Translations under genes and position numbers: made by a program
Notes under the pieces: model-generated
Seen by the model: only the letters and a program-made list of their open reading frames with translations
Database searches by the model: none
Told to the model about the DNA's origin: nothing
Shown: positions 3,084 through 44,304 of the stretch, piece after piece
Position numbering within the stretch: the first letter of the stretch is position 1
Layout of the letters: every line of letters begins with the position of its first letter
Assembly (NCBI GenBank): GCA_965140585.1
Contig: OZ223265.1
Span: 320,001-384,000, forward strand
DNA: 64,000 bases
Source of the DNA: Spirochaetia bacterium
GTDB taxonomy: Bacteria > Spirochaetota > Spirochaetia > UBA9216
Direction of reading: 5' to 3'

Positions 3084-4868
3084 ATGAATAATGATATTCC
3101 AAAATGGAAAGCGGAAAATCCCTACAAGGGCTTTGATGACCCCGATTACCTTTTACTTAAAAGAGAACTTAAAGAATATACAGAAAAGCTTAATAAAGCG
3201 GTTACAGATCACAGCGGACATCTTACCGCAGAAAAACTCACAGAAATAATGAAGATGTACAACGCGGCATCCGACCGTTTTGAGGAACTCGATTCCTATA
3301 TATACTGCTGTCATTCCGTCGACACATCCGACCAGAAAAGCCTGAATGAAATGAATGAATTTGAGGGAATGTCAGTTCCCTTGCAGTCCTTCAGGGTAAA
3401 ATTCAGGGACTTGCTGGCTGCCGAGGGTGAAAGCATCTCCATTCTTATTAAAAATGATCCGTATCTCTCAAAATTCTCATTCTTCTTTGAAGAGGAGATA
3501 CTTCTCCAGAAACACCAGATGACAGCCGAGATGGAAGAATTTGCCGCAGATCTGGCCAGATGCGGGGCTGAATCATGGACAAGACTGCATAACAACATCA
3601 CTTCCACAGCATCAGCCCTCTGGGATGAGAAAACAGGAGAAATGAAGACGGCTACCCAGCTGCGGGCCCTGGCCTTTTCTCCTGATGCTGAAACAAGAAA
3701 AAGAGCCTGGGAACTTGAGAACGTAATATGGAAGGATAACGAAGTTCCCCTTGCATTTGCTCTCAATGGGGTTAAAGGATTCAGCACCGCTGTAAACTCA
3801 AGACGCAGCTTTGAATCAACACTCCAACGTTCAACCATGCAGTCCAGAATAAGCACTAAGACCCTTGAGTCCCTCATCGGTTCACTAACAGATTCACTGC
3901 CGGTATTCAGACGCTATATGCGTCTTAAAGCAGGACTTCTGGGACGAAAGACCCTGCCTTTCTTTGACCTGTTCGCCCCTGTTGGAACTTCGGATAAGGT
4001 ATGGAGCTTTAAGGAGGCATCTGATTTTATAGTTGAAAAATTTACAGCCTTCAGCAGCGACCTGGGTGAGCTTGCATCAACAGCCTTCCGCGAAGGATGG
4101 ATTGATGCCCTTCCGCGTAAAAATAAGATAGGCGGAGCATACTGTGCCGGCCTCCCGGTCGCAGGCGCCTCCAGAATAATGAGCAATTTTGACGGCTCAT
4201 TCAGCGGACTTACAACAGTCGCCCACGAACTAGGTCATGCATACCATAACTATGTGCTTAAAAACGAGGAAGGACTCCACCGCGACTTTCCTATGACGCT
4301 CGCAGAAACCGCTTCAATATTCTGTGAAACCATTGTCTTTGAGGAATCACTTAAAACCTCCCCGGAAAGCGACAAACTGGGAATTATTGAAACCGAACTG
4401 ATGGAAGCCAACCAGGTTGTTGTCGACATCCTTTCAAGGTTCATCTTTGAAAAGGAAATTATGGAGAGACGAAAGACCGGAGAACTCTCTGCTTCGGACT
4501 TCTGCAGCATAATGCTTGATGCACAGATGAAGACCTACGGAGACGCTATGGATCCGGATTATATGCACCCCTACATGTGGGCGGTAAAGGGACATTACTA
4601 TCGTCAGGACCTGGCATTTTACAACTTTCCCTATGCTTTCGGAAAACTCTTCGGTATGGGCCTATACTCGCTCTATCTGAAAGAGGGTGATTCATTCCCC
4701 GAAAAATACCGCAATCTGCTTCTTATGACCGGAAAAGATAGCGCAGAACAGGTGACATTAACAGCCGGCTTTGATATAACAAGTAAAGACTTCTGGATGC
4801 AGGGTATCGACCTTATTGAAAAAAAGGTCGATGAGTTCGAAGAACTCTGCAGCAGAAACATGGGGTAA
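3084..4868 (+). CDS. pepF: M3 family oligoendopeptidase F
   Basis: HELGH zinc motif, KIGGAYC, LAETASIFCE, FYNFPYAFG; AAGGAG SD upstream. Confidence 0.92.
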   Translation: MNNDIPKWKAENPYKGFDDPDYLLLKRELKEYTEKLNKAVTDHSGHLTAEKLTEIMKMYNAASDRFEELDSYIYCCHSVDTSDQKSLNEMNEFEGMSVPLQSFRVKFRDLLAAEGESISILIKNDPYLSKFSFFFEEEILLQKHQMTAEMEEFAADLARCGAESWTRLHNNITSTASALWDEKTGEMKTATQLRALAFSPDAETRKRAWELENVIWKDNEVPLAFALNGVKGFSTAVNSRRSFESTLQRSTMQSRISTKTLESLIGSLTDSLPVFRRYMRLKAGLLGRKTLPFFDLFAPVGTSDKVWSFKEASDFIVEKFTAFSSDLGELASTAFREGWIDALPRKNKIGGAYCAGLPVAGASRIMSNFDGSFSGLTTVAHELGHAYHNYVLKNEEGLHRDFPMTLAETASIFCETIVFEESLKTSPESDKLGIIETELMEANQVVVDILSRFIFEKEIMERRKTGELSASDFCSIMLDAQMKTYGDAMDPDYMHPYMWAVKGHYYRQDLAFYNFPYAFGKLFGMGLYSLYLKEGDSFPEKYRNLLLMTGKDSAEQVTLTAGFDITSKDFWMQGIDLIEKKVDEFEELCSRNMG

Positions 4869-4875
4869 TTTTTTT

Positions 4876-5964
4876 ATGGAGAAACCAAACGGCAAGAAAG
4901 TCGGCATAATAAACGCAGGAGCCTGGGGCACTGCAATCGGAAAAGTACTTGGAGATTTGGGACATGATGTAACTATGTGGGATTTCATGGCCGATGTCGT
5001 CTCCGAGATAAACAGCAAACACTCAAACTCCCGCTATCTGCTGGGAGTCAATCTGAAGGAAACTGTAAAAGCAACCACTGAGCTTACAGAAGCTGCTTCA
5101 GATAAAGATTTTATTATTATTGCGACCCCTTCACTGTACATCCTGGATATAGTGAAGAAACTCGTACCCATTCCCGACATAATGGAAGGAAAACCGGCAA
5201 TCGGAGTCCTTACCAAGGGATTTATACAGACTCCAACTGGGCCTATGCTTATAACAAGAGCAATGGAATCATACCTTCCCGGTTTCTACAAGGACAGCCT
5301 GGTTTACATTTCAGGTCCGAGCCATGCCGAGGAAGTATCAAGGGGAAAGATTACAGGTCTTATCAGCGCCAGTAAAAGCGGGCTGAACTCTATCAGGTTC
5401 AGGGAACTGCTAACAGGCTCAAACCTCCTGGTGTACTCTTCTTTAGATGTCGAGGGTGTTCAGACCTGCGGTGCCGTAAAAAATGTTATTGCAATTGCAT
5501 ACGGAATACTCGATGCACTGAGTGAAATATCAGACAACTTCGGAGATAACACCGAATCGCTGCTGCTCGCTGCAGGTCTTAACGAGATTCAGATACTCGG
5601 TAAAACCCTGGGTTCAGAATACCCGGAAACCTTCACAAGCATTGCAGGTGTTGGCGATCTTGATGTTACCTGCCGAAGTATTCACGGCAGAAACCGGAAA
5701 TTCGGACGCGAGATCATAAAGGCCCATGTCCTTGACAGCTTTGATTCTCTGGATGATCTTATAGCCAACATTTCAAGAATCGGATATCTGCCGGAGGGTG
5801 TGGTTGCCGCCCGTTTTGTAAAGCAGATAACAGAAATATCAAAACTGAAACTTCCAATTTCGGAAGCAGTCTACCGGATCCTAAATAAAGAGCAGATGCC
5901 GATGCAGGCAGTTCAGGATATTGTAAAAAGCCTCAGTACGCAGGCTTCTTCGAAAGAACTTTAA
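4876..5964 (+). CDS. gpsA: NAD(P)H-dependent glycerol-3-phosphate dehydrogenase
   Basis: AGAWGTA Rossmann motif, SGPSHAEEV, GAVKNVIAIA, GVGDLDVTC, RN. ATG 4876 preferred over the ORF-track start at 4816. Confidence 0.93.
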   Translation: MEKPNGKKVGIINAGAWGTAIGKVLGDLGHDVTMWDFMADVVSEINSKHSNSRYLLGVNLKETVKATTELTEAASDKDFIIIATPSLYILDIVKKLVPIPDIMEGKPAIGVLTKGFIQTPTGPMLITRAMESYLPGFYKDSLVYISGPSHAEEVSRGKITGLISASKSGLNSIRFRELLTGSNLLVYSSLDVEGVQTCGAVKNVIAIAYGILDALSEISDNFGDNTESLLLAAGLNEIQILGKTLGSEYPETFTSIAGVGDLDVTCRSIHGRNRKFGREIIKAHVLDSFDSLDDLIANISRIGYLPEGVVAARFVKQITEISKLKLPISEAVYRILNKEQMPMQAVQDIVKSLSTQASSKEL

Positions 5965-7261
5965 GCCGCTGCATATCGGCGCGCGTAAAGCCTTCCCATT
6001 CCATGGGGAAGAAGCTGTTGTTGTGAAACAGCGGCTCTTCCTCAATCGGATACCGGCATTCTTTAACACATTCATTCCATAATGGAGAACCGGGAACCGG
6101 CGAAAACTCGGAAACCGAGAGCCGCACACCTGTCCTAGAAGCAAAGCGGATCGACTGCTCAACTTCATCCGCTTTTTGACGCGGAAGACCTGCCAGCAGG
6201 TAGACTATTATCTGATTTCTCTCAAAACCGGCATCGGTAAGCATTTCAATACGGTCGTAAAAATCCTGGATACCGAACTTCCTGTCGTGGTTTTCATGAA
6301 AATCATCTGAAGAGCTCTCAAACCCCAGACGGATTTCCCGAAATCCAGCCTTCTTCATCAGATCAGCAGCTTCAGTATCCATATAGCGGATATGCATGGC
6401 ATTGGGTGAATAAAAACTGTACTGAACGCCACTCTTTTCTGATTCATGTATTATTCCCTCAAGAAAGGGTTTAAACACGTCATCTGAACGAAAAAGAAGG
6501 GCATCGTCATAAAATGCAAAATTAAAAGTGCCGTGGACTCTGTTTACCATTTTTATCCATTCGACTGCAGTATCCGGACGGCCCTGATAAAACCCGTCGG
6601 TGAGTTTAAAAGAAGCGCAGTAATCACAGCGCAGCGGACATCCGGAATTAAGATTGATAATTGCAGAGTTATCCCAGACAGGCCCGTCGGAGGGCAGCCG
6701 CCCGGCCTCCACTGAGATCCCCGGCAGAGCCCTTTGCTTCAGCCATAGGTCAAGCCCGGCTCCGGCTGTCCCGGTGTTAACAAAATCAGAGCCGGTTACA
6801 GCTGTGCAGTGCTCCGGCATCAGGCTTGCATAGACTCCTCCTGTGATTACAGGGACATCAGGCCACAGCCTTTTTGCAATTTCAGAAGCCTCCACTGCCC
6901 CCTCATACCAGTATGTCATCCCTGTAGAGATAAAAACAGCATCCGGTGTGTTCTCCGACATCCTGCGTTCAAGCTCAACCCGACCAATACCGTAACAGGC
7001 AAAATTACGGGGAATATTATTCAGTGCATCAGGTTTTTTAACAAGGGTTCTTATAAATTTCCCTGTTCCGTTCTCTTTGGTCTTCCCCGGAGCATGCTCA
7101 AGAGAATTTATAAGCTCAACCTTCCAGCCTGCGGCCGAAAGCATGGCATGCAGCCTCATCAGACCATATGGCTTAAGATAGAGATCAAATAATGCAAACT
7201 CATAGACATTCGGATATATTAGAAGGGCAGAAGGCCGGTCCGGTCTTCCGCGATCAGTCAT
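5933..7261 (-). CDS. Radical SAM protein with N-terminal B12-binding-like domain
   Basis: CPLRCDYC cluster motif, GGVYASL, FYDDALL, LGFES. 3' end overlaps gpsA convergently by about 32 bp. Confidence 0.85.
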   Translation of the reverse strand: MTDRGRPDRPSALLIYPNVYEFALFDLYLKPYGLMRLHAMLSAAGWKVELINSLEHAPGKTKENGTGKFIRTLVKKPDALNNIPRNFACYGIGRVELERRMSENTPDAVFISTGMTYWYEGAVEASEIAKRLWPDVPVITGGVYASLMPEHCTAVTGSDFVNTGTAGAGLDLWLKQRALPGISVEAGRLPSDGPVWDNSAIINLNSGCPLRCDYCASFKLTDGFYQGRPDTAVEWIKMVNRVHGTFNFAFYDDALLFRSDDVFKPFLEGIIHESEKSGVQYSFYSPNAMHIRYMDTEAADLMKKAGFREIRLGFESSSDDFHENHDRKFGIQDFYDRIEMLTDAGFERNQIIVYLLAGLPRQKADEVEQSIRFASRTGVRLSVSEFSPVPGSPLWNECVKECRYPIEEEPLFHNNSFFPMEWEGFTRADMQRLKVLSKKPAY

Positions 7262-7616
7262 CGCGCCTCACTGTATCCGGTGAGAATGCCGGAAGGCAGA
7301 CTGCAATATACTCAGCACCTTCAGGCTCGGGCGAGCTGTAGCGGACCCATTCACCTGCAGTTATGTGGACGCCTTCGCCGGCGCCTACCGTAAAATTTCC
7401 GGTTTCAGTTTCGACAAGAAGCTTTCCTGCAAGGACAACTGTATACTCATCAAATTCTGGCCGCTGTCCCGGTTCAACCCAGCCGCCGGGGCTCTTCATC
7501 TTTGCAATACTGACAGAACTGTCTCCGCTGTTAACCAGTCCGAAAAACTCTTCAATACGTTTCGGCATGTTTCCGGCAGATTCAACTACCGAAGGCTTAT
7601 CTATTTTGATACTCAT
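7254..7616 (-). CDS. Cupin domain protein (EutQ-like)
   Basis: EPGQRPEFDEYTVVLAG...GEWVRYSSP; overlaps the radical SAM start, suggesting translational coupling. Confidence 0.8.
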   Translation of the reverse strand: MSIKIDKPSVVESAGNMPKRIEEFFGLVNSGDSSVSIAKMKSPGGWVEPGQRPEFDEYTVVLAGKLLVETETGNFTVGAGEGVHITAGEWVRYSSPEPEGAEYIAVCLPAFSPDTVRRDD

Positions 7617-9931: not shown

Positions 9932-11251
9932 TCAGTTTTTCATTGTCAGCGGCATTCTTGTTGTCTGAAGAACATCTCTCCATAAACTGCCTTCGGGATC
10001 TACAAAGTTGCGCTTTGAAACGGCAAGCTCCATCGGTACAAGGACGAAACGGTCATTAACCATGCTTATAAGGGCCTTTGTCTTTCCGGCCATAGCAGCA
10101 TGAACTGCGTGGGTTCCAAGCCTGAGACAGTAAATTGAATCATTAGCATCTGCAGCTGTGCTTCTTATAAGATAGCTTGGATCGATGTACTTGATGTTAA
10201 CCTCAATCCCCTCTTTATCAAAGTATTCAGCTATCTGCTCTTTCATGAAACGGCCGATATTTCCAAGGGTCTTGTTGCCTGAATCATCGGTTTGTTTCAG
10301 ATCCTCCAGCATATCCTGGCCGGCACCCTCAGCGACTATGATTACTGCCCTGTGCTTCTCACTGATCCTCTTCTTCAGATGCTCCAGAAAACCGTTGGGT
10401 CCATGCAGGTCAAAAGCGATTTCAGGAATGAGCACGAAATTAACTACGCTCATTGCAAGGGCTGTGTGGGCAGCAATAAAACCACTTTCACGCCCCATCA
10501 GTTTAACAAGACCTATTCCGTTAAAAGCGTCCTTGGCTTCAACATGGGCAGCAGCAACAGATTCAACAGCCTTTGATACCGCAGTTTCAAACCCGAAGGA
10601 GCGCTGAATAAAACTCAAATCATTATCAATGGTCTTGGGAATACCGATGATGGCAACTTTAAGACCGCGTTTTTCTATTTCATTGCTTATGGCTATGGCA
10701 CCCTTGGTTGTTCCGTCGCCGCCGATGGTGAAAAGCATATTCATGTTCAGCCGTTCAATGGCATCAACAACCTCTTCAATCTCACCGCCGCCGCGGGATG
10801 AACCGAGCATGGTTCCGCCCATATTATGGATATCATCAACAACATCGGGGTTAAGCTCAACTATCGGAAGGTTATACTCAGGAAGAAACCCCCTGTAACC
10901 GTTTCGTATTCCGGTGATGCGTCTTACACCGTACTGGTACCAAAGAGTCCGCACTATCGCCCTTATGACATTGTTAAGCCCCGGGCAGAGCCCACCGCAG
11001 GTTACAACACCGGCATGCACATGACCGGGGTTAAAATAGAGCAGTTCATGAGGACCGGATTTTTCCAGACAGAAATTTGAGTCGCATTCCGGCAGCACCT
11101 CACCCTTTTCAACTTCAACGTCGTAGAGGATGCATTCCTCATCCCTTATATAATTGACTATTCGGTCTCCGTATGTCTTTGACATCTGTATCGGTGACTT
11201 AATCTTGGCTTCACCAAGCTTCGGAATACTGAAATTATATTTCTTCGCCAT
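9932..11251 (-). CDS. pfkA: ATP-dependent 6-phosphofructokinase (group X type)
   Basis: VTCGGLCPGLNNVIR, GGTMLGSSRG, GGDGT, PKTIDND, MGRESGFIA, KYIDPSY. Confidence 0.93.
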   Translation of the reverse strand: MAKKYNFSIPKLGEAKIKSPIQMSKTYGDRIVNYIRDEECILYDVEVEKGEVLPECDSNFCLEKSGPHELLYFNPGHVHAGVVTCGGLCPGLNNVIRAIVRTLWYQYGVRRITGIRNGYRGFLPEYNLPIVELNPDVVDDIHNMGGTMLGSSRGGGEIEEVVDAIERLNMNMLFTIGGDGTTKGAIAISNEIEKRGLKVAIIGIPKTIDNDLSFIQRSFGFETAVSKAVESVAAAHVEAKDAFNGIGLVKLMGRESGFIAAHTALAMSVVNFVLIPEIAFDLHGPNGFLEHLKKRISEKHRAVIIVAEGAGQDMLEDLKQTDDSGNKTLGNIGRFMKEQIAEYFDKEGIEVNIKYIDPSYLIRSTAADANDSIYCLRLGTHAVHAAMAGKTKALISMVNDRFVLVPMELAVSKRNFVDPEGSLWRDVLQTTRMPLTMKN

Positions 11252-11282
11252 CCGGGTTCTCCTGATGTTACAAAAAGTATTG

Positions 11283-11355
11283 TAAACACCTGAAAACAGC
11301 TTTTTTCAGGTGTTTAGCGTACACTAATACTAAGGTTTTTGTGCCCTGTTTTCAA
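11283..11355 (-). promoter_or_regulatory. pfkA promoter with 14-bp inverted repeat at the predicted transcript 5' end
   Basis: Minus strand TTGAAA (11355-11350)-N17-TAGTAT (11332-11327). Perfect inverted repeat TAAACACCTGAAAA/TTTTCAGGTGTTTA at 11283-11316. Confidence 0.55.
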
Positions 11356-11383
11356 GCAGGATTTTCTGCCTTAATACCGCAGC

Positions 11384-12685
11384 TCAGTTACTTGCAAGAT
11401 AGGTCCGTATTGAGTCGCCAAGCGTTTTATAAATATTCCTGCGTTTCTGATCATCAGCCTCAAGCAGTGTGAATCTGAATCCCTTGAGCTGCGAACAGAA
11501 ACCTGTAAGCGGTACTACACATATTCCAGCCGCACCAAGAAGGTAGTAAACAAAGCGCTTATCAAGTTCAAGGCCTTTAACCTTTTCTTCAACATAGTTT
11601 CTGATATCCGGCTCGGAAATCTCTAGAAACTGACCTTCATTCAGAACTCCATCTTTAAAAAGGACTGTAAAATAGAGGGCCCCCTGCGGTTTTAGAACCT
11701 GAATACCCGGAATATCCTTCATATTGATATAGGCTTCCTCAGCTCTTGAAGCCAGCATTTCAGACTGGGTACGGATATGTTCAGGGTATCTTGGATCTCC
11801 CATAATCAGAGGGATTGAAAGCTGAGGCAGAGTCGTTGAACAAACCTCAAGGCGCTTGGCGTTGATAAGGCTCGAAATGTATGTATCAAACTCCGGATCT
11901 TTTTTACGGTTGTAGACTTCAATCCAGCCGCATCTTGCACCGGGCCAGGGGTATTCCTTGCTTACGCTTTTCATCGAAACAGCAGGGACATCGCCGATGA
12001 CCTCGCATATATAGCTGAAATCGACATCGGGAAAAACCACCCTGCTGTAAGTCTCATCGGCAATAATAAACAGGTTGTAATCAGCAGCTATCTGTACGAT
12101 CTCACTTAGAAGTTCACGTGAATATACAATGCCTGTAGGGTTATCGGGATTTATAAGCAGAATTCCGGCAATTGAGTCATTGTATTTTACTTTGTTCCTC
12201 AAATCTTCGATATCAGGCAGCCAGTTATTTTCCGGATCGAGCTTGTATGTCAGATGCTCATAGCCTGAGTGAGCTGCTTCAGCTGATGAGTGGGTTGAAT
12301 AGGCAGGAGACGGTCCTATGACCCTTGCTTCTCTCTTTAAAAAACCGAAAATCTTTGCAACAGCGTCTCCAAGGCCGTTGAAAAAAATTACATCATCGTG
12401 ACTGATATGAGCTCCGCCTATTGCGTTGCATTCGGCGGCAAGAAATTTTCTTGTTTTAAGATCACCCTGACTGTCCGTATAGCGGTAACTGCTGTCGGCA
12501 GCCGCCAGGCTGGAAATTATGTCTTTCATCCAGGGTTCGATGTTGTTCCCCTTTTCAACCGGATCACCGATGTTCTCCCAGCTTATTTCCCTGCCGAGCT
12601 CTGCAATCTCATTTGCAACCGATACGATCTGCCTGATCTCATAAGTCAGCTGCCTTGCACCTTCATGTACTATCGCTCTTCTCAT
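11384..12685 (-). CDS. PLP-dependent class I/II aminotransferase, AlaA/AlaT-like (probable alanine-synthesizing transaminase)
   Basis: LTYEIR, NIGDP, INPDNPTG, ADETY, SVSKEYPWPGARCGW (PLP lysine). The N-terminus resembles the AlaA 'YDIRG...NIGNP' pattern. Confidence 0.82.
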   Translation of the reverse strand: MRRAIVHEGARQLTYEIRQIVSVANEIAELGREISWENIGDPVEKGNNIEPWMKDIISSLAAADSSYRYTDSQGDLKTRKFLAAECNAIGGAHISHDDVIFFNGLGDAVAKIFGFLKREARVIGPSPAYSTHSSAEAAHSGYEHLTYKLDPENNWLPDIEDLRNKVKYNDSIAGILLINPDNPTGIVYSRELLSEIVQIAADYNLFIIADETYSRVVFPDVDFSYICEVIGDVPAVSMKSVSKEYPWPGARCGWIEVYNRKKDPEFDTYISSLINAKRLEVCSTTLPQLSIPLIMGDPRYPEHIRTQSEMLASRAEEAYINMKDIPGIQVLKPQGALYFTVLFKDGVLNEGQFLEISEPDIRNYVEEKVKGLELDKRFVYYLLGAAGICVVPLTGFCSQLKGFRFTLLEADDQKRRNIYKTLGDSIRTYLASN

Positions 12686-12723
12686 TTCAACTCCACTCCA
12701 CCGTTTTTAGTAATCACCTCTGC

Positions 12724-12756
12724 AAAAAAAAAGCAGAGTCTGTAAAAAGACTCTGC
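12724..12756 (-). terminator. Attenuator terminator in the aminotransferase leader
   Basis: GCAGAGTCT-TTTTAC-AGACTCTGC followed by T9, about 40 nt upstream of the aminotransferase start codon. Confidence 0.85.
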
Positions 12757-12814
12757 CATCAGCTTCAATATTAACCGGACCGCGAGCCTTTTATAAAGAC
12801 TGCGGCGAAATATG

Positions 12815-12892
12815 TCAGAACCTGTTCAACCCCGCAGTCAAAGTAGCTGCGGCCGCGGCGGATATATTCTTGTTTAAGATTGATTCCAACAT
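12815..12892 (-). CDS. Alanine-rich leader peptide MLESILNKNISAAAAATLTAGLNRF (25 aa)
   Basis: ATG at 12892, TGA at 12817-12815, five tandem Ala codons GCC GCG GCC GCA GCT at 12859-12845. Lies between the promoter and the terminator. Confidence 0.75.
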   Translation of the reverse strand: MLESILNKNISAAAAATLTAGLNRF

Positions 12893-12898
12893 ATTGAG

Positions 12899-12927
12899 AA
12901 TGTACCGTCAGTCAGTGTTTATGTCAA
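12899..12927 (-). promoter_or_regulatory. sigma70 promoter giving a leaderless leader-peptide transcript
   Basis: TTGACA-N17-TACATT; the leader ATG lies 7 nt after the -10 box. Confidence 0.8.
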
Positions 12928-13058
12928 GGGGGATGATATTCTGCGATTATCATCCCGGCACAAAATCATAGATTTTCTGCGAAACCGAACTAATAAAATT
13001 GACAATCGCTTTTAACCTGAGTTAATTTGTCAGGATTTAATTTTATAAGGATTATTAT

Positions 13059-14072
13059 ATGAAAAAAAAAATTAAAACTTAAAGCTTTTCTGATAGTACT
13101 TGTCATTACTCTATTCGCATTTTACAGCTGTGATGGAATCACTACAGCAAACAGCGGTATAACCGTAACAAACCTGTCACTGAATGATACTGAGCTGACA
13201 GTTAAACTTACATCTACAGCTCAGCTTGCAGCAACAGTTGAGCCTGAGGCAGCTTCAGAGATAAGCCTCATATGGGCCACTTCTGATGAAAGCATCGTTA
13301 CCATCAGCGATGACGGAACCGCAACAGCGGTTGGTGCAGGAACTGCTGAAATAACAGTATCAACTACTGACGATTCTTTCTCTGCATCGGCGAGCGTTAC
13401 GGTACTGCCCATTTTATATGGAGTCAGCAAAGGAAACAGCAGCCTGGGAACAAGCATCCTTTATGAAATTGATTCAGAAACAGGCGAACAGCTTGCCGAA
13501 ATTGGTGATACCGGCTACTACCTTAACGGGGTCTGGTTTATGATAATGATAACGGAAAACTGTATGGAACTACATCAACTAATGATACAACACTCTCTTC
13601 CGGAATTGTAGAGGCCGGTTTTCTTAATCCGGCATTCGGACCTTCGGGTACTCTTTACGCCTGGAGTGAAAATACAGATGTACTGGTTACCGTAAACCCG
13701 TCAACCGCAGAAATAACAGAATTTGAATCATCCGGACTTTCAACATGGACACATGGTATGGATTTTGACAGCAGCGGCAATCTATATCTGATTAATCCGG
13801 AACAGGAAAATGAATCAATCGATGCTGTAGATATATACAGCATCAACACTTCCACCGGTGCTGCAACATTTGTCAAAAAGATAACAACAGATACCACCCA
13901 TGTCTATGCTCATCATGGAAAATTCAACCCTCTGACCGGATTTTTCTGGGGCATAGATAACAATTCCGGAACAGAACGTTACTTCAACATACTGGATGTA
14001 GACGCCGGAAGCAGATCATCAACCGCACAGACTATCAACAATCTGCATTCCATAGCTTTCAGAAGTAAATAG
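13059..14072 (+). pseudogene. Frameshifted lipoprotein with Ig-like (Big_2) domain and beta-propeller-like C-terminus
   Basis: ATG followed by A10 gives TAA at 13080. With A9 it reads MKKKLKLKAFLIVLVITLFAFYSC (lipobox) then LAATVEPE...WATSDESIVTISDDGTATAVGAGTAEITV (Big_2). A second shift at G4 (13528-13531) joins the 13758-14072 ORF. Confidence 0.8.
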
Positions 14073-14091
14073 ATTAGCCGGTTCAACTAAT

Positions 14092-14120
14092 AAAACAGCC
14101 CCTGTAGAGGGGCTGTTTTT
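14092..14120 (+). terminator. Intrinsic terminator
   Basis: AAAACAGCCCCT-GTAG-AGGGGCTGTTTTT. Confidence 0.85.
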
Positions 14121-14150
14121 GTCTTCATAAAAAGCCGGTATATCTAAATC

Positions 14151-15296
14151 ATGCTTGCAATTATGCCTGATCTGATATTATTATTCACTATGGCTTTTTC
14201 CTGCATACGCATTCACCGAAAACTGTTATTTGCCTCAATCCTTCTAACAGCAGTCTTTCAATCCATATGCGCTCAGGATGTGCAGGTTAATCTTTTTATC
14301 GGAAGCAGTCCAATAAATGCAGCCGTGTTTATAGACAGAGAACCGCAGGCCCAGGCAACACCGGTGCTTCTGAGGGGAATCAGCACCGGAAGCCATGAAA
14401 TAAAAATAATCAGCGAAAATTATCAGCCTTGCATAGATATTATTGAACTTACTGATAAAAACAGCAGCTTCTTTGCCGACCTTAACTCAAAGGTCATACC
14501 CTCATCCTTTGTTTCCGAGGAAAATATTATCCTGAGGGCTGATGAAGATAAGATCCTGGGGAATAATCTGTTAATGCCTGAAAGCTGGTACAGAATCTCA
14601 CGAGAAGGACGGGATGTAATTATCACCCCGATTTATCAAAAGGAAAAACTTTTAACCGCAATATCCACCCTGCTTCCAATATCATTCGGATTTACAGCTG
14701 CAGCCTTCGGAATAGACTGGTATGAGAGCAGCCGGATAAGATGGCCGCAGCCGCTGTATCTTACAGCGCTGGAAAGCACAACTCTGCTTCTGGCAGCTAC
14801 TGAAATTGCCCTGCTGATTGACAGAAGCGATTATCTTAAACATTACGAGATAGCCGAATTCCAGCCGGGAAGCACCGAAGCCGATGCGGAACTGATTTTC
14901 CAGCAGGCTGGTGATGCTCTTGCCGGAGGAAGCCTTGAAGAAGCGCTCAGCCTTTACAGTGAAATAATCAGCTTTCACAAAGACTCAAAATTCTACGCCG
15001 AGTCTATCTACAGGAGCGCAAAAATCCACATTATAACCGGCGACACTCCGCTGGCTGTAGCAGAACTGAATATGATAATAATGCGTTACCAGACCCCCGA
15101 AGTCTACGACAGGGCCTGTCAGGCAATTGCCCTTCTTTACTACAATCTTGATGAACCCGGAAAAAGCAAAGAATATGCAGAAAAGATGGTTTTTATTGAT
15201 CCACTGTTCTCAGGCACCGAAGAAGAGATTCAGGCAAGCGGGATAGAAACGGTCATTGAATCCTGGGCCCGCAACCCCGGGGAGAGGCTTGAATAG
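14151..15296 (+). CDS. PEGA-domain / TPR-containing membrane protein
   Basis: SSPINAAVFID...TPVLLRGISTGSHEIKI (PEGA), two central hydrophobic segments, C-terminal TPR-like helices. True start may be 14190. Confidence 0.7.
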   Translation: MLAIMPDLILLFTMAFSCIRIHRKLLFASILLTAVFQSICAQDVQVNLFIGSSPINAAVFIDREPQAQATPVLLRGISTGSHEIKIISENYQPCIDIIELTDKNSSFFADLNSKVIPSSFVSEENIILRADEDKILGNNLLMPESWYRISREGRDVIITPIYQKEKLLTAISTLLPISFGFTAAAFGIDWYESSRIRWPQPLYLTALESTTLLLAATEIALLIDRSDYLKHYEIAEFQPGSTEADAELIFQQAGDALAGGSLEEALSLYSEIISFHKDSKFYAESIYRSAKIHIITGDTPLAVAELNMIIMRYQTPEVYDRACQAIALLYYNLDEPGKSKEYAEKMVFIDPLFSGTEEEIQASGIETVIESWARNPGERLE

Positions 15297-15297
15297 C

Positions 15298-15891
15298 ATG
15301 AAAAAGACTACCCCCGCAACAATACTTATACTTTTTCTTTTACTGCCTCTTGGCACTGTTTATGGACAGGAATCCGAAGTTTATGTTGATGAACTGCTGA
15401 ACCGCTACATGGAGCTGGAAAATTCTATAATTGAAAACCAATCATTAACTGAATCTGATATCACTGACATCGATAATCTGATTAATACTGCGATAAATGA
15501 AAACCGCAGGGATATTATCAGCAGAGCCAGAATGCTTAAGTTCATAGCAGAATCTTCAATAAATAAAAACAGGACTGTTCAGAACAGCACTGAAATTACC
15601 GCCTCACTGCTTCTGGCTGAAAAGGACAGGATAAATTCCGGACGGACAGAAAAACTCATAAAAAGCCTTACTACTGCAGATCTATGGGTTGCCGGAGTTT
15701 CCACTGTTGTTTTTGCAGCCTCTGCAGCGGGCTATGAACACTTTTTCAATAAATACACTGAGACTGAATACAATGATCAGGCAGCCTTCTACCTCTTCTG
15801 GTGGCAGCTTCTTGAGGATACATCGATAATATCGGGAATCACAGCAGTCACAACCCTGCTTACAGCAGGAATCCTGTCAGCAGTATTTTAA
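15298..15891 (+). CDS. Hypothetical membrane protein
   Basis: Signal peptide MKKTTPATILILFLLL and two C-terminal hydrophobic helices; ATG 1 nt after the upstream stop. Confidence 0.7.
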   Translation: MKKTTPATILILFLLLPLGTVYGQESEVYVDELLNRYMELENSIIENQSLTESDITDIDNLINTAINENRRDIISRARMLKFIAESSINKNRTVQNSTEITASLLLAEKDRINSGRTEKLIKSLTTADLWVAGVSTVVFAASAAGYEHFFNKYTETEYNDQAAFYLFWWQLLEDTSIISGITAVTTLLTAGILSAVF

Positions 15892-15920
15892 TCTTCTCGA
15901 TTCAAAAAATCAGAGGCTTT

Positions 15921-17579
15921 TTATTTAGTAGTCATTATCTCAACGCCGGTCCAGTCATCGGGCGGCGGAGTGGTCATGTACCTGCGGCTTCGCTCCATGA
16001 ACATGTTTGAAAGATAGTCGTCGTGGTCGATGCTCATAGCAGCACCGAAGTATTTTATGGCTTTTTTAAAATCACGTGAATAAAAGAGTCTTGCCCCGGC
16101 GTTATGGTAAGCCCAGGCCTTCTTTTCTCTATCGGAGAGGCTGGTACTTGCGGTGTAAATGCTTTCCCCCTGAGTTTTGCCCTTAACCTGGACCTTGTCG
16201 ACAACCCTGCAGGGCACCTTGCTTCGAACCTTCCGGTACACGCTCTCAGAAATTATAACGCCCTGTTTATAGGGTTTGGTTAGGCCTTCAAGCCTTGAAC
16301 CAAGGTTTACCATATCACCGATAAGAGTGTAATCCATTTTCTTCTCTGATCCGATGTTTCCTACAGTCACAACACCATAGTTTATACCGATGCCTGTCTT
16401 GAATGGATGCTTGCCTTCACTTTCAAGCTGCTCATTAAACTTTGCCAGGGCATCCTGCATCTCAAGAGCAGCCATAACCGATTGGTATGCATCATCATCG
16501 TGTTTAACAGGCGCGCCGAAGTAAGCCATTATAGCATCACCTATATACTTATCAATAACACCACCGCGGCTGATGATTATATCAACCATGATCTCAAAAT
16601 ATTTATTAAGATCAATGACAAGCTGATCCGGAGAATAACTTTCAGAAATCGTCGTAAAACTTCTGATATCCGAGAACAGGATTGAAATTACCCGGTTTTC
16701 TCCTATCAGCATCGATTCAGGATTCGCAAAAACGGTTTCTATAACATCCTTTGGTACATATTTCTGGAAAATATTTCTAATCTTGTGCTCGCTCTTCTTT
16801 GCAAGTACGGCCTCTATTGCGTGTTCCTTGATCTGCTGGTTTGCCCGCTCGAGAGCACCGATCATGGTATTGAATGTATCTGCAAGCTGTCCGGTCTCAT
16901 CACGGTATTCAACCTCAACACGGCGTGAAAGATCGCTGTCGCGGATTATACCTTTCATAGCCGAGACAACCCTTGTAAGAGGGCCAATCAGATATGAGGC
17001 AAGAATCAGTATAAATATCAGCGAGATTACTATTGATATACCAAGAATTATGTAATTCTGCTGCAGCAGTTCAGAGACTTCACGATAGAAGGCTTCACTG
17101 TCTTCGGTAAGAAAGACATACCAGTCAAATGGCTCAAAATAAAAGTAATCTCCTACCCTGGCTTCACCTGAGATATCGAGTTCTACCCATCCTGTTTCGG
17201 GTCGTTTAAGAGTATCTGTAAAAACATCTTTTTCCTCAGGAAGAACCGAAACTCCTGCAGTTTTCATTACAACATTAGAATCAGGTGTTACAGCAAAGAT
17301 TAGCTCAGTCTCGCTTCGCAGAAGGGTAAAGGCATATGAAAGCACGGCACTCTTTGCTACCTCTACATATTCCGGGCGCTCACTGAATCCGTTATCCTTC
17401 AGAAGGGTCCACTGGTTCTGCATGTATTTTTCAAGTTCTTCGGATTTAAAACCCAGAGAAGACATCGCGAGCCTTGTCATACCGCTTCTGGCCGAATATG
17501 ATGAGAATATTCCCGTAATGAGCAGGGCCGCCGCAAGGAGAGGCATTACAATAAGGATAAGTCTCGCGCGAATTTTCAT
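15921..17579 (-). CDS. Membrane-bound class III adenylate/guanylate cyclase with Cache-like sensor and HAMP domain
   Basis: Two TM helices; HAMP (GPLTRV...RDETGQLADTFN); FSDIRSFT, DKYIGDAIMA, DYTLIGDMVNLGSRLEG, VKGK. The K/D specificity residues indicate ATP. Confidence 0.92.
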   Translation of the reverse strand: MKIRARLILIVMPLLAAALLITGIFSSYSARSGMTRLAMSSLGFKSEELEKYMQNQWTLLKDNGFSERPEYVEVAKSAVLSYAFTLLRSETELIFAVTPDSNVVMKTAGVSVLPEEKDVFTDTLKRPETGWVELDISGEARVGDYFYFEPFDWYVFLTEDSEAFYREVSELLQQNYIILGISIVISLIFILILASYLIGPLTRVVSAMKGIIRDSDLSRRVEVEYRDETGQLADTFNTMIGALERANQQIKEHAIEAVLAKKSEHKIRNIFQKYVPKDVIETVFANPESMLIGENRVISILFSDIRSFTTISESYSPDQLVIDLNKYFEIMVDIIISRGGVIDKYIGDAIMAYFGAPVKHDDDAYQSVMAALEMQDALAKFNEQLESEGKHPFKTGIGINYGVVTVGNIGSEKKMDYTLIGDMVNLGSRLEGLTKPYKQGVIISESVYRKVRSKVPCRVVDKVQVKGKTQGESIYTASTSLSDREKKAWAYHNAGARLFYSRDFKKAIKYFGAAMSIDHDDYLSNMFMERSRRYMTTPPPDDWTGVEIMTTK

Positions 17580-40253: not shown

Positions 40254-41027
40254 TCAGTTCAGATTATACAGATGAATCTGTTCGAGTCCGAGGAGGACAA
40301 GTTCGGGAACATTTTTGTCGAATAGGCCGAAGCCTGAATAGAGATCAGCATACATCCCGGTAGAGATAATCCTGCAGCCTTCGGAAGAAAAACACTCATC
40401 CTCCATACGGCCGGTAAGTTCCTTCAGCATTCCAAGGGTACCGTAATACAGTCCGCTCTGAATTCCGCCGGACACATCCCGGGCACAGACCTTTTCAACA
40501 GGCTGTATTTCAACCACCGGCAAGCCCGCAGTCCTTGTAGACAGGGCTTCCATAGCAACGGCAAGCCCGGGAATCAGGGTACCGCCGAGGTATTCGCCTG
40601 CCGAACTGACCGCGCAGAGGCTTGTAGCCGTACCGAAGTCAACGATAATCAGGTTTTCATCCGGATACAGTTTGGAAGCCGCCACAGCGTTTGCAATAAG
40701 ATCAGCCCCAAGCTCACGGGGATTTGAATACCTCAGCTTAAGCCCGCTTTTCACGCCGGCCTTCAGGCTAAGGGCCTGAATACCGAAATATTTCCTGATG
40801 CAGCCGTTCATAACCGCATTGAGCTCCGGCACAACCGAGCAGAAGACTGCATCGTCAACGTCATCCCGGCTTTTCCCGTTTGCAGCCAGCCAGCTCAGAA
40901 AAAAGAGTCCAAGCTCATCCTCCGTCAAGGCAGAAGCCGTACTCTTTCTGAAATCGGCTAGAAGCCTTCCTTCCTTCAGGAGTCCGCCGAAGATTACAGT
41001 GCTGCCGATATCAACCGCAAGAACCAT
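40254..41027 (-). CDS. coaX: Type III pantothenate kinase homolog with divergent substrate motifs
   Basis: AVDIGST, CSVVP, NPRELGADL, VDFGTATS, GGTLIPG, IQSG, LVLLGL. Start MVLAV at 41027. Confidence 0.8.
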   Translation of the reverse strand: MVLAVDIGSTVIFGGLLKEGRLLADFRKSTASALTEDELGLFFLSWLAANGKSRDDVDDAVFCSVVPELNAVMNGCIRKYFGIQALSLKAGVKSGLKLRYSNPRELGADLIANAVAASKLYPDENLIIVDFGTATSLCAVSSAGEYLGGTLIPGLAVAMEALSTRTAGLPVVEIQPVEKVCARDVSGGIQSGLYYGTLGMLKELTGRMEDECFSSEGCRIISTGMYADLYSGFGLFDKNVPELVLLGLEQIHLYNLN

Positions 41028-41192
41028 AACCCTTCCCTTCTTCAATATTCTTTATGTGTAAATTTAAAATTTGCTGATTACTGAATTTGTTCATTAGTAC
41101 CTGTCCTCCCCAGATCAAGTCTGAACCAATTAATAAGATATGATTTAAATTCTGCACATCATGGCCGCTGAACCAGTCGACCTGATTATCTC

Positions 41193-41221
41193 AATTTAAT
41201 TACTCCCGCTTGTATAGTCAA
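41193..41221 (-). promoter_or_regulatory. sigma70 promoter for coaX-pdxS-pdxT
   Basis: TTGACT-N17-TAAATT on the minus strand. Confidence 0.6.
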
Positions 41222-41238
41222 GAAGAGACGGCTATTTA

Positions 41239-41267
41239 TTGCCGGGATTGTTTTTCTGGTATATATT
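41239..41267 (+). promoter_or_regulatory. Putative sigma70 promoter of the RiPP-like operon
   Basis: TTGCCG-N17-TATATT, 9 nt before ATG 41277. Confidence 0.45.
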
Positions 41268-41276
41268 TGGAAACAT

Positions 41277-41489
41277 ATGAAAAAAATTACAGCCGTATTA
41301 CTAATGTTAATGCTAATAATCGGTTTTTCCCTTTCCGCCTGTAATCCCGATCCCGGGGCAGGTACCGACACGACCGATACCGACACGGAACAGGATTATC
41401 CGGATACTGATACTGACAGCGATACTGCAGCATCAGATTCAGATACTTCAGAACCTGACGACACTTCCGGAGCGTCTACCTCAGGCTGA
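41277..41489 (+). CDS. Small Asp/Thr/Ser-rich lipoprotein-like peptide; candidate precursor or substrate of the downstream modification enzymes
   Basis: Signal MKKITAVLLMLMLIIGFSLSA|C (lipobox). The 49-aa mature part has 13 Asp, 11 Thr, 7 Ser and no Lys or Arg. Confidence 0.75.
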   Translation: MKKITAVLLMLMLIIGFSLSACNPDPGAGTDTTDTDTEQDYPDTDTDSDTAASDSDTSEPDDTSGASTSG

Positions 41490-41541
41490 CATGCGTGGGG
41501 GCCTTATTACAGAAAACAGCAGTTTTTCATAAAACAAAAAT

Positions 41542-42711
41542 ATGATAAAGTCTTTTTGTAAAATGAAATTAAGCACAAGACTATCAGAGGAAGAGAATTT
41601 CATACTCAGTTTCTTTACGGATCGAAAAGACCGGACTGCAGAAGCCGGGATAAACACCGCCGATCTTGACTGGAATTTCATTTTTAAACTTCTTCAAACT
41701 CATAAACTGCTGAGAAGTTTCGCACATCTTATATTGGATGAGTCGGAAAGCAGACTTTCTGAAAGGACAATATCTGCATTGCAGCGGATTGATAAACTTG
41801 CCGCTGTAGAAAAAAAGATATATTTTGAAAAACTTGAACTTATAAAATCACTTCTTGAAAAAGCCGGTATCGAGCTCTGCCTCTTAAAGGGATTCAGCCT
41901 TGGCAGCGCCGAAGCCCCGCGGGATGTGAACGACCTGGATCTCCTGATAAAGGAGAAGGATATAGCGGAAGTACACCGGATTATGCTTGAAAACGGATTC
42001 ACCTACAAGGGTGATGACAGAAAGCTTTATCTGAAAAGCGAAGATCTGGACGGTAATATAGACTCCCTTAAAAACTGGACTAATCAGTTTGAATACCTCG
42101 CGAAAAAAGATGATCTGCTCACTGAAATTCACACCCACCCATTTGAAAGGAGCCGGGTTTACAGTTTCAACCTTGATAAACTATGGCTGCACAGCGACCT
42201 TCTTCTCGAACGGGCGGTTTATTCCAAAGATTTAGACTGCAGAATACTAACACCATCAGACAACCTCTGGCTTATCTGTATGCATAACGCTTTCAGGCGC
42301 TCGGTTGTAAAATATAAGTTTACACTACGGTACATTCTTGATATGAAATACCTGTGTTCACAGCCCGTTTTTGACTGGAAAGACTTTCTTGCGACTGCAG
42401 AAATCACCGACACTGTAGGTTTTTCGCTATTTTCACTGGAAATGCTTGAATACTTTTTTTCAGGAACAGTACCGGAAACAGTCATCATTACCCTTAAAAC
42501 AAGGCTTCGAAAAAGCGAACGTTTTTTCAGACTCATCCAGCATGGCTGCCTTCACTCAATGACCGAATCAAAGCGGACATTCACAGTCCTTTATAGCATA
42601 CTGCTGCCCTTCGTATACGGGGGACAGTTAAAAAACAAGGTGAAAAGCATCTTCATCATACATCGGATCTTTAAACCGCCGGTAAAACGCTTTTTCAGAG
42701 GCTCAGTCTGA
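41542..42711 (+). CDS. Nucleotidyltransferase family protein (NTP_transf_5-like)
   Basis: LLKG, PRDVNDLDLLI (DxD), EIH, H...LRYILDM...DW pattern. Start may be 41563. Confidence 0.85.
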   Translation: MIKSFCKMKLSTRLSEEENFILSFFTDRKDRTAEAGINTADLDWNFIFKLLQTHKLLRSFAHLILDESESRLSERTISALQRIDKLAAVEKKIYFEKLELIKSLLEKAGIELCLLKGFSLGSAEAPRDVNDLDLLIKEKDIAEVHRIMLENGFTYKGDDRKLYLKSEDLDGNIDSLKNWTNQFEYLAKKDDLLTEIHTHPFERSRVYSFNLDKLWLHSDLLLERAVYSKDLDCRILTPSDNLWLICMHNAFRRSVVKYKFTLRYILDMKYLCSQPVFDWKDFLATAEITDTVGFSLFSLEMLEYFFSGTVPETVIITLKTRLRKSERFFRLIQHGCLHSMTESKRTFTVLYSILLPFVYGGQLKNKVKSIFIIHRIFKPPVKRFFRGSV

Positions 42712-43166
42712 TGGCGGGAGCTGTTAATATTCTCTCCATGAAACCCGGCGACAGGGCGTGGGTCCCGGTACTTTCGGGAAGCATGGCGCCCGGATTTCTG
42801 CCCGGAGATGAAGTTGAGATTCTTATTCTTGACCGGATAGAGGCAGAATCTGAACTCAAGCCCGGTATGATTGCAGTATTTTATGAAAACGGCATTATTT
42901 ACTTTCATCGTATACTTTTTATAAATATATTTTCAGGAAGAATCTATCAGAAGGGCGACGGCAATCCCGAAGGCTCATGGATTTCAGCAGGCCGGATTAT
43001 AGGAAAAGTAACATCCGGCAGACGAAGCAGTCAGGACGGGAGTCTGGAATATGATGATGGAAGATGGACAACAGGGCAGGCCAGGCGACAGTTTATAAAA
43101 ACACAAATCATGGCCGTACTGCGATATGCTAAAGCTGTATCGAAAAGGATAATAAAGGGTGTTTAA
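42711..43166 (+). CDS. S24/S26 family peptidase (Ser-His type, no TM anchor)
   Basis: SGSMAPGFLPGD, FHRI, KGDGN, IIGKV; TGATG coupling to the upstream gene. Confidence 0.85.
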   Translation: MAGAVNILSMKPGDRAWVPVLSGSMAPGFLPGDEVEILILDRIEAESELKPGMIAVFYENGIIYFHRILFINIFSGRIYQKGDGNPEGSWISAGRIIGKVTSGRRSSQDGSLEYDDGRWTTGQARRQFIKTQIMAVLRYAKAVSKRIIKGV

Positions 43167-44001
43167 ATTCATGCTTGAGGCAGGCGAAAAAACAGTCTGC
43201 CTTGATTTCAGAAAAAGATGGCTCAGGGATAACATGCTTGAGTACTTCATGGGACAAAACAGCAGCAGCCTTCTCGATGTGCGGCTGAAAATAAGGCTGA
43301 TGGATCGGAATACTGAAATTGATCTTGTTCCCGATTCTCTTTTTCATGCAAAACGCCGGAATGGTGACGGATTCACCATCGAGGGCGGCATGATGTCGGG
43401 AATGTACGAGGCCGAAAGAAAAACAGCGGAACTTCTGATTCATCCTTTACTTGTTGAAACTTCCGCATCAAGAGTGTTTGAGCAGATTATCTATCAGGCT
43501 TATGTAACCGCCTGTGATGAATCATACGGCTTGATGCCGCTTGTGCATTCCAGCGGAGTTATAAAGGACGGCAGGGGATACCTGTTTGTAGGAGCCTCTG
43601 AAGCCGGCAAATCAACCGCCGCGGCGCTTTCTTCCGGTTATAAAATTATAAATGATGAAATATGCATCGCCGACATATCCAAAGAAGTCCCTAAGCTTGT
43701 TTCGACCCCCTTCAACGGGCTGTACAGAATCAAGCAGTCCGGGCGCGCCCCGCTTGCAGGTATTTTCATACTGAAAAAAGCGGACGAACACAGTGTTGCT
43801 CCGGTAAGCGGCGCGGCAGCGGTCAAACTAATCGCATCTCAGCTGATTCCGCCGGTGGGCCTGGGAGATATCATGCAGAGCGAGGATTACCTTAAACAGA
43901 TTGATATTGCCTCTGAATTATGCAGTAGAGTTCCGGTATACGAGCTGAGCTTCAGAAAAGACCCCGGGTTCTGGAAAGAGATTGAGCAGATTTCAGACTG
44001 A
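43159..44001 (+). CDS. HPr-kinase-like (HprK-related) peptide kinase
   Basis: VHSSGV, Walker A GASEAGKST, IINDE, STPFNG, PLAGIFIL. GTG start overlaps the peptidase stop. Confidence 0.82.
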   Translation: MFKFMLEAGEKTVCLDFRKRWLRDNMLEYFMGQNSSSLLDVRLKIRLMDRNTEIDLVPDSLFHAKRRNGDGFTIEGGMMSGMYEAERKTAELLIHPLLVETSASRVFEQIIYQAYVTACDESYGLMPLVHSSGVIKDGRGYLFVGASEAGKSTAAALSSGYKIINDEICIADISKEVPKLVSTPFNGLYRIKQSGRAPLAGIFILKKADEHSVAPVSGAAAVKLIASQLIPPVGLGDIMQSEDYLKQIDIASELCSRVPVYELSFRKDPGFWKEIEQISD

Positions 44002-44022
44002 GCCGAAAACAGGAGATTTTAA

Positions 44023-44304
44023 ATGAATACAGAGAATAAACTTCCCCTAACCGTAACTATAGCCTCCAACCTGAGCGAAAGAGATCTCGGTGATGAAATA
44101 GTGGTTGTGATATCAGGCAGTGATGAAATTCACACATTCAGGGAAACCGGTATGGAAATATGGAAGATGCTGGCAAAAGGCCTGAATACCGGAGATATTA
44201 TTTCCGCTATGATGAAAGATTACGGTGTTGAAGAAGAAGAGCTTGAGACCGATCTCAAGCTCTTTCTTGAAGACTGCAGATCGAAGAAACTGATAAATTA
44301 TTAA
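44023..44304 (+). CDS. PqqD-family RiPP recognition element (stand-alone RRE)
   Basis: 93 aa: RDLGDEIVVV...FRETGMEIWKML...YGVEEEELETDLKLFLEDCRSKKLI; AGGAG SD. Confidence 0.88.
   Translation: MNTENKLPLTVTIASNLSERDLGDEIVVVISGSDEIHTFRETGMEIWKMLAKGLNTGDIISAMMKDYGVEEEELETDLKLFLEDCRSKKLINY

Follow-up and report, generated by a model that had tools for sequence, protein, structure and literature searches.

A spirochaete operon that most likely encodes the enzyme half of a peptide-phosphorylating pathway, with the precursor encoded elsewhere in the genome

Background

Which peptide do the enzymes of a small bacterial operon modify, and is the modified residue a tyrosine? This sharp question is posed by a locus within a 64,000-nucleotide stretch of contig OZ223265.1 (assembly GCA_965140585.1, positions 320,001 to 384,000), from a Spirochaetia bacterium of the lineage UBA9216; the whole stretch is referred to here as the window. 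The locus comprises genes for a nucleotidyltransferase (N), a soluble S26-type protease (S), a kinase (K) and a stand-alone PqqD/RRE protein (B), preceded by a gene for a 70-aa lipoprotein. A first-pass annotation, made from the window alone, regarded these five genes as a self-contained and uncharacterised pathway acting on the acidic lipopeptide. The analysis described here indicates that the four enzyme genes are most likely one half of a pathway that trims and phosphorylates a gene-encoded peptide, the 69-aa P0084, encoded far away on another contig.

A closely similar enzyme set belongs to the linear polyphosphorylated peptides (LPP), made by the lppA-K-B-S-D-N cluster that Popov et al. 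(2026) studied in Paenibacillus alginolyticus DSM5050 (PMC13381572; this and the lasso peptide articles cited below are drawn on in part). In LPP, LppK polyphosphorylates Ser3 of the precursor and the leader is cut by LppS in an RRE-dependent manner, whereas deletion of lppN produced no visible change (PMC13381572). As the N-S-K-B enzymes are the LPP set, the type of pathway has already been described; the first-pass annotation is supported in proposing a cyclase-free, RRE-dependent set in which a soluble S26 protease of Ser/His type, serving the leader, accompanies a kinase and a nucleotidyltransferase, but not in calling it uncharacterised. In the accessible parts of that article, LPP is treated as restricted to Bacillota, its final product, function and the role of its nucleotidyltransferase are given as unknown, and neither spirochaetes nor the phylum name is mentioned in the text or six supplements (PMC13381572). 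The peptide kinases of the phosphoenolpyruvate carboxykinase/HPr kinase (PEPCK/HPrK) fold described in the LPP, pseudomycoidin and Bsf articles all modify serine (PMC13381572, PMC9266682, PMC10368454).

Results

A candidate precursor on another contig

When the window's own genome (98.5% complete) was searched by tblastn with seven short peptides encoded in related clusters, six gave the same top match, at position 163779 of contig C7 (best E 9e-5); the seventh query belonged to a different family. The gene at this position, encoding P0084, carries a ribosome site (GGAGG), is followed by a terminator-like stem of 10 pairs, and shows a dN/dS of 0.07 relative to a sister genome of the same genus (G002), the reference for all such values given here. 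The leader of P0084 carries a YxxP motif (Y5-x-x-P8), followed by a linear core rich in Gly, Asn, Pro and His that lacks Cys and contains one Ser (Ser27), four residues past Tyr23. No Pfam model matched the peptide, and the ESM Atlas returned only unnamed clusters below 0.9 for it. The motif of the family described below was found once in the six-frame translation of the genome, and once in ten shuffles combined.

In the sister genome, the enzyme and precursor loci share one contig, approximately 808 kb apart, so the split is not an effect of assembly. Profiles of the kinase and of the precursor, the latter derived from peptides encoded next to these kinases, matched the same 11 of 401 genomes of the class, with none discordant and neither matching any of the other 390; likewise, both matched the same two of 11 genomes of the order. 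The informative part of this co-occurrence is the absence of genomes with the precursor only. Among the observations that would tell against it, the first-pass annotation had named a canonical precursor located elsewhere and travelling with the enzyme genes; such a precursor, of YxxP type, was found here.

Phylogenetically, the window kinase falls in a clade (support 100/99) with that of G519, in which the precursor is adjacent, and with P0003, its nearest database relative. The peptides closest to P0084 over the full length are P0137 (59% identical) and P0132 (53%). Kinase P0003 and peptide P0137 appear to share a source genome, as do P0021 and P0132, and these near-relative pairs suggest that the precursor adjoined the enzymes in near relatives and then moved in the window's genus. 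P0084 is very probably the substrate of the window enzymes. With the likely precursor, and the exporter that follows it, sitting on another contig, the description of the operon as self-contained is unsupported.

Among five genomes tested, the best match of this MsbA-like exporter was in G529 (36% identity), within a cluster that includes two lasso-type precursors and a kinase. This cluster (L059:300-3523, G529:C35), in which two short YxxP-type precursor-like open reading frames (ORFs) surround the kinase-like gene and the exporter, resembles a spirochaete cluster for phosphorylated peptides of lasso type. Elsewhere on contig C7, positions 115000-158000 (G000:C7, G000 being the window's genome) form a polysaccharide locus with a 1844-aa acyl-CoA ligase/PKS protein, a carrier protein, an AsnB-type amidotransferase and a priming sugar transferase-PilZ-VpsT-like module, and in G327 the peptide cluster is itself flanked by a module of similar make-up. 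Unrelated genes separate the P0084 gene from an MBOAT gene, at 8 kb, and from the priming sugar transferase, at 15 kb, and polysaccharide genes adjoin three of 17 cluster loci (two checked with Pfam, one by eye); the link between the peptide clusters and polysaccharide loci is weak.

A family of GVFG-x-Y peptides

In a phylum sample of 401 genomes the kinase profile matched seven, in a class sample of 401 it matched 11, and in a second class it matched seven of 122; the surroundings of all 17 distinct matches outside the window's genus were retrieved. An RRE protein and a short peptide of the same family lie beside the kinase at every one of these 17 loci, accompanied by the S26 protease at 15, an ABC-2 exporter pair at 14, the nucleotidyltransferase at 13 and a radical SAM/SPASM protein at nine. 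The five-gene order, whose conservation across spirochaetes the first-pass annotation proposed as a check, recurs in its enzyme part only, the co-oriented N-S-K-B arrangement being kept at six of the 17 loci and the lipoprotein at none. At one locus (L027:7068-8348, G102) the S26 protease and kinase are fused in a single 426-aa ORF, and similarly long open frames occur among other kinase matches. Two loci, L023 (G143) and L044 (G681), have the kinase, RRE, radical SAM protein and precursor with no S26 protease or nucleotidyltransferase within the retrieved stretch. G681 also has a second, orphan precursor (L072:1462-1686, G681:C252), remote from the enzymes, whose Tyr has neither Ser nor Cys nearby.

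The peptides share the pattern K-x-Y-x-x-P-x9-G-V-F-G-x-Y, followed by a variable Gly-rich and often Trp-rich tail. YxxP is present in 19 of 19 locus precursors, and the first 14 peptides, chosen by patterns that did not require the last Tyr, all carry it. Profile searches identified 101 proteins and 288 representatives (50% identity, E <=0.001). Two members (P0089 and P0139) carry an automatic 'RiPP' label in their source, and four members compared with NCBIfam matched no model. Neither the GVFG-x-Y precursors nor a version of the chemistry directed at Tyr was found described in a literature search that left most subscription journals outside its scope. By their sequences, these peptides appear to be a separate, unnamed and undescribed precursor family. 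Scanning genome contigs with a single kinase as query gave one locus, and a metagenome scan gave six; at one of the latter (L019:4773-8219), a kinase, RRE, radical SAM protein and S26 protease accompany a YxxP precursor of another kind, which has Cys at its end.

An optional radical SAM enzyme tracks a C-terminal cysteine

A Cys is found within the last ten residues of the precursor at nine of nine loci with the radical SAM protein and at none of ten without it, counts that come from related loci and so include kin that are not independent; three of the loci were scored after the pattern had been noticed, and all three fit. On the kinase tree the radical SAM label shows six switches, of which three or more cross well-supported branches, and because of these repeated changes the match does not reflect one inherited event. 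At eight of the 17 loci outside the genus the cluster is free of radical SAM, and in nine other genomes of this kind (69-99% complete) no ortholog was found elsewhere, the best match being a 29% partial one compared with 41% for a positive control. Similarly, the window's genome encodes four SPASM proteins but no member of the family, its best matches being 27-29% identical as opposed to 40-46% among cluster members, and P0084, lacking Cys, is consistent with this. From these sequence patterns the radical SAM enzyme appears to be an optional addition that tracks the C-terminal Cys. The match yields a prediction of where a radical SAM/SPASM family that is still uncharacterised acts on its substrate, and the version without radical SAM offers the simplest system for the core chemistry.

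The four enzymes

The nucleotidyltransferase and the PqqD/RRE protein are each present once in the window's genome, and both exceed the cut-offs of the models proposed for them in the first-pass annotation (NTP_transf_5 and PqqD). Further models were matched below cut-off: the peptidase scored 32 bits against sigpep_I_arch (cut-off 52), and the kinase 38 bits against ScmC (cut-off 125) and 20 bits against HprK_rel_A (cut-off 200). The kinase matched no Pfam model in the library scanned, and a search of PDB sequences with its profile returned only P-loop noise. Its predicted structure (pLDDT 96) matches PEP carboxykinase over the full length (Z 13.8, rmsd 4.1, 236 residues aligned), with a C-terminal domain that matches HPr kinases (Z 9.2-9.7), and H130, the P-loop G145-x4-G150-K151-x-T153, D166 and E167 are invariant in 73 aligned rows.

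The S26 peptidase has no membrane segment in its sequence; S24 is invariant, and H66 and K81-G-D83 are conserved among relatives. Its predicted structure (pLDDT 83) gave weak Foldseek rows to S24/S26 proteins, with nothing at E <=0.001. By analogy with LppS the protein is a putative leader peptidase. Certain signal peptidases of S26-like type need no more than a Ser-His pair for activity. K116-G117, R127 and D131-x-D133 of the nucleotidyltransferase are invariant in an 11-row alignment; the related nucleotidyltransferases GlnD and GlnE modify Tyr. Relatives of the RRE protein in the PDB include TbiB1 (E 6e-5) and chain B of 9x8z, the LppB complex (E 0.006). The predicted complex of the RRE with precursor residues 1-35 scored 0.71, and a control with the RRE replaced 0.55, which gives no verdict either way.

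An invariant tyrosine in register with the phosphorylated serine of LPP

Positions in the family were numbered with the leader Tyr as the first, in 215 distinct sequences, which include the best 150 of the 288 representatives. Of the 215, 214 could be anchored, using positions 1, 4, 14 and 17, at which counts are by construction. Among the matches listed, Tyr occupies position 19 in 210 of the 214 and position 20 in the other four, and is the only invariant hydroxyl residue of the family. At positions 18 (68/214) and 21 (56/214) the residue found most often is Ser, but position 18 is not Ser or Thr in 141, and 50 have neither at positions 18-24. At one locus with the full enzyme set (G742), the precursor has Lys at position 18 and no Ser or Thr past the Tyr. 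Counted from Y-16 of LppA (PMC13381572), phospho-Ser3 also stands at position 19, in the same register as the family Tyr. By this analogy the family suggests a Tyr-directed variant of LPP chemistry and, provided that P0084 is the partner of these enzymes, we think Tyr19 the better candidate for the modified site.

Discussion

Proposed pathway

We incline, by a modest degree, towards the view that the window contains the N-S-K-B half of an LPP-like pathway that this genus has divided between two loci, with P0084 as the substrate and its Tyr19 phosphorylated. As in LPP and lasso peptide structures, the RRE would bind the YxxP leader of P0084; the PEPCK/HPrK-fold kinase would then phosphorylate the residue at position 19, the invariant Tyr in place of the Ser3 of LPP; the soluble S26 protease would cleave the leader at a bond within or just past GVFG; the nucleotidyltransferase may extend the phosphorylated residue with a nucleotide or sugar, as has been proposed for PsmN; and the MsbA-like ABC protein encoded beside the precursor may export the linear core.

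A number of observations weigh against this view. The known kinases of the group, LppK and BsfK, are Ser-specific: in the parts of the articles drawn on, LppK phosphorylates neither an S3Y nor an S3T precursor (PMC13381572), and BsfK modifies Ser3 with the help of an RRE (PMC10368454). Mutation of D93 stops LppS (PMC13381572), and by-eye comparison finds its counterpart missing from ten of ten peptidases of the spirochaete family. Two of the 17 loci have neither the S26 protease nor the nucleotidyltransferase nearby, and four have no nucleotidyltransferase. The family precursor was found at none of the six metagenome loci, including one with 16.7 kb of context. Since the precursor profile was built from peptides neighbouring the kinases, the positives in the co-occurrence are partly by construction; searches with such profiles are also biased towards peptides with Tyr19. 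In addition, the terminator-like stem sits between the precursor and exporter genes, and the usual ABC-2 pair has no clear ortholog in the window's genome (best 37% for the ATPase and 28% for the permease).

Alternative substrates and states of the cluster

The same enzymes could be paired with the same remote precursor but carry a Ser-directed kinase, acting on Ser27 of P0084 and on Ser 18, 21 or 22 in relatives, with the Tyr serving as a recognition or cleavage residue or as a target of the nucleotidyltransferase only. The precedent of LppK, BsfK, PadeK and PsmK, all of which act on Ser in the articles cited, argues for this, as do the single core Ser of P0084 and the prominence of Ser at positions 18 and 21 in the counts above; however, those counts reveal no conserved Ser position, 50 peptides are without Ser or Thr at 18-24, and the G742 precursor, with its full enzyme set adjacent, has none past the Tyr. 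We regard a Ser-directed kinase as rather unlikely, and Tyr19 phosphorylation of P0084 remains the preferred explanation. A bolder version of the latter, which we put forward only tentatively and judge somewhat doubtful, is that an RRE-dependent Tyr kinase of the PEPCK/HPrK fold and a nucleotidyltransferase make a linear peptide bearing Tyr-O-phospho-(nucleotidyl or glycosyl), with GVFG-x-Y as a fixed platform and the radical SAM enzyme acting on the C-terminal Cys repeatedly gained and lost; once exported, such a peptide may act as a primer or tether for a surface polysaccharide, and in this genus the lipoprotein may be a surface partner.

The adjacent lipoprotein, which the first-pass annotation took for the substrate, could itself be phosphorylated on Ser or Thr and nucleotidylated, or could be a surface acceptor for the modified peptide or glycan. 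Its gene is co-oriented with the enzyme genes, ends 52 bases upstream of the nucleotidyltransferase gene and is under selection like theirs (dN/dS 0.12); of the 49 residues of the mature protein, 18 are Ser or Thr (11 Thr and 7 Ser, beside 13 Asp). The 70-aa ORF is a real gene, restricted to the genus: it was present in two of 61 class genomes searched, whereas none of the 17 cluster loci outside the genus has a homolog or an acidic lipobox ORF, and four of five cluster-bearing genomes had no match, the fifth giving a weak, low-complexity one on another contig. Similar N-termini also start unrelated larger ORFs in the window's genome. In close relatives, a divergent ABC-2 pair occupies the slot upstream of the nucleotidyltransferase gene. 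G529 retains only a fragment of the ABC-2 permease, having also lost the pair, and at its locus (L043) a 979-aa DUF285-repeat lipoprotein with a Thr/Asp-rich start directly follows the precursor (4334-7273), a parallel that would suit a role for the lipoprotein; a giant acidic, secreted-looking protein of more than 1938 aa (10688-16501) flanks the same cluster. Against such a role as substrate, a lipobox routes proteins to Sec/LspA, away from cytoplasmic enzymes. Because it has no YxxP leader, with no score against the precursor hidden Markov model, and is found only in its own genus, the lipoprotein is probably a passenger or accessory and not the precursor. It would be a genus-specific addition that may serve as a surface partner of the exported peptide, and we consider it improbable as a substrate or acceptor; mining of the neighbourhood alone would have picked the wrong peptide.

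Finally, the operon could be what is left, in decay, of a once larger cluster with radical SAM, which has lost its radical SAM enzyme, exporter and precursor and no longer makes a product. The family radical SAM enzyme and ABC-2 pair are indeed missing from the genome, the peptidase lacks the counterpart of D93, and the dN/dS of the enzymes (0.11-0.15, the range for all five ORFs) is roughly double the value for coaX and rhaM on the flanks (0.06). These values nevertheless indicate purifying selection, and the genes are intact in two genomes; furthermore, the clusters free of radical SAM described above, with no ortholog elsewhere in their genomes, have precursors that, like P0084, end without a Cys. 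Decay appears very improbable, and a functional enzyme half acting on P0084 is the reading retained.

Organisation of the operon

The features of both loci are collected in Table 1. The first-pass description of the window genes as five co-oriented ORFs with overlapping starts and these flanks was borne out by coordinates and Pfam matches: TGATG at 42709-42713 links the nucleotidyltransferase and S26 genes, the S26 and kinase genes overlap by 8 bp (43159-43166), and the operon is bounded by a divergent type III pantothenate kinase gene, coaX (Pfam E 9e-56), and a convergent rhaM (E 2e-31). Going by the ORF list alone, pdxS and pdxT adjoin coaX. In the interval that separates coaX from the lipoprotein gene (41046-41276), about 190 bases are near-identical to the sister genome, while nearby synonymous sites are well diverged, and this intergenic region contains a repeated CTGAACCA word; it may serve coaX-pdxST as a leader or a regulator site. 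An Rfam search of 40900-41700 gave no match, and promoter scans gave signals no better than chance.

Table 1. Coordinates of the operon genes in the window and of the remote precursor locus on contig C7 of the same genome (G000).
Feature	Position	Strand	Evidence or remark
70-aa lipoprotein gene	41277-41489	+	ORF present; lipobox LSAC, Cys22
389-aa nucleotidyltransferase (NTP_transf_5), LppN/PsmN-like	41542-42711	+	Pfam E 3.5e-25
151-aa soluble archaeal-type signal-peptidase-I-like (S26) protease, LppS-like	42711-43166	+	TIGR02228 E 8e-8, below cut-off
280-aa PEPCK/HPr-kinase-fold P-loop kinase, LppK-like	43159-44001	+	Predicted fold and invariant residues
93-aa stand-alone PqqD/RRE	44023-44304	+	Pfam E 9.4e-13
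Remote precursor P0084, 69 aa	G000:C7:163779-163988	+	Other contig of own genome; putative RRE partner
625-aa MsbA-like ABC exporter	C7:164108-165985		Downstream of P0084 gene

Comparison with known systems

Gene types similar to those of the operon occur in SynChlorMet (Scm)/HPr-rel-A cassettes, and among NCBIfam models the kinase matches ScmC best. Membership of these cassettes was rejected: the scores are far under the cut-offs, the RRE has no ScmD match and the genome has no family radical SAM protein. The radical SAM proteins of relatives score 110-116 bits against ScmE (cut-off 400).

The phosphorylated lasso peptides paeninodin, pseudomycoidin and Bsf (PMC9266682, PMC10368454) share the RRE, kinase and nucleotidyltransferase, and the His-Lys-Asp-Asp motif of their kinases corresponds to H130-K151-D166-E167 in the window kinase. 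In pseudomycoidin, PsmN is required for the addition of hexose to phospho-Ser, by a route that is unsettled (PMC9266682). By contrast, the window's genome has an S26 protease in place of the macrolactam cyclase and B2 cysteine protease, and the product would be linear. As the first-pass annotation had stated for the operon, no lasso cyclase, B2 protease or family radical SAM was found, here in the whole genome, and a lasso peptide was rejected as the product on the first two counts. Two Asn_synthase matches exceed the cut-off, with a third below it: the first is a full-length glutamine-dependent AsnB (434 bits against TIGR01536, 197 against the lasso cyclase model, cut-off 525), and the second a weak match of 436 aa with no lasso cyclase match.

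The likeness to LPP is closer. Both systems have a discrete RRE beside a protease of the archaeal signal peptidase I type, of 151 aa in each, together with an HprK-like kinase and an NTP transferase, and neither has a macrolactam cyclase; P0084 likewise combines a YxxP leader with a Gly/Asn/Pro/His-rich core (compared by eye with a row of the LPP supplement). The LPP core cluster includes an MsbA-like transporter, whereas the window operon has none and a similar protein, putatively linked to the pathway, follows the remote precursor; a table of the LPP article has a column for precursors located elsewhere in the genome (PMC13381572). The LPP precursor consensus YxxPxVLxHQxIxFETxxS, with Ser3, had no convincing match among small ORFs of the window's genome, and because this test failed the operon is not placed as a member of LPP, though it would work like an LPP cluster. 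The hosts differ, being Spirochaetota as opposed to Bacillota, as do the leader ends (GVFG-x-Y in the spirochaete family, FET-xx-S in LPP) and the residue at the same position, Tyr in place of Ser3. Of the LPP protease residues S29, H68 and D93, the window peptidase keeps the first two as Ser24 and His66, with the counterpart of D93 absent. The precursor and exporter are remote from the enzymes in the window's genus, and spirochaete relatives mostly have an ABC-2 exporter and often a radical SAM/SPASM protein. Set beside LPP, what is new here is the precursor family, the remote location of the precursor, the Tyr hypothesis and the rule relating radical SAM to the C-terminal Cys.

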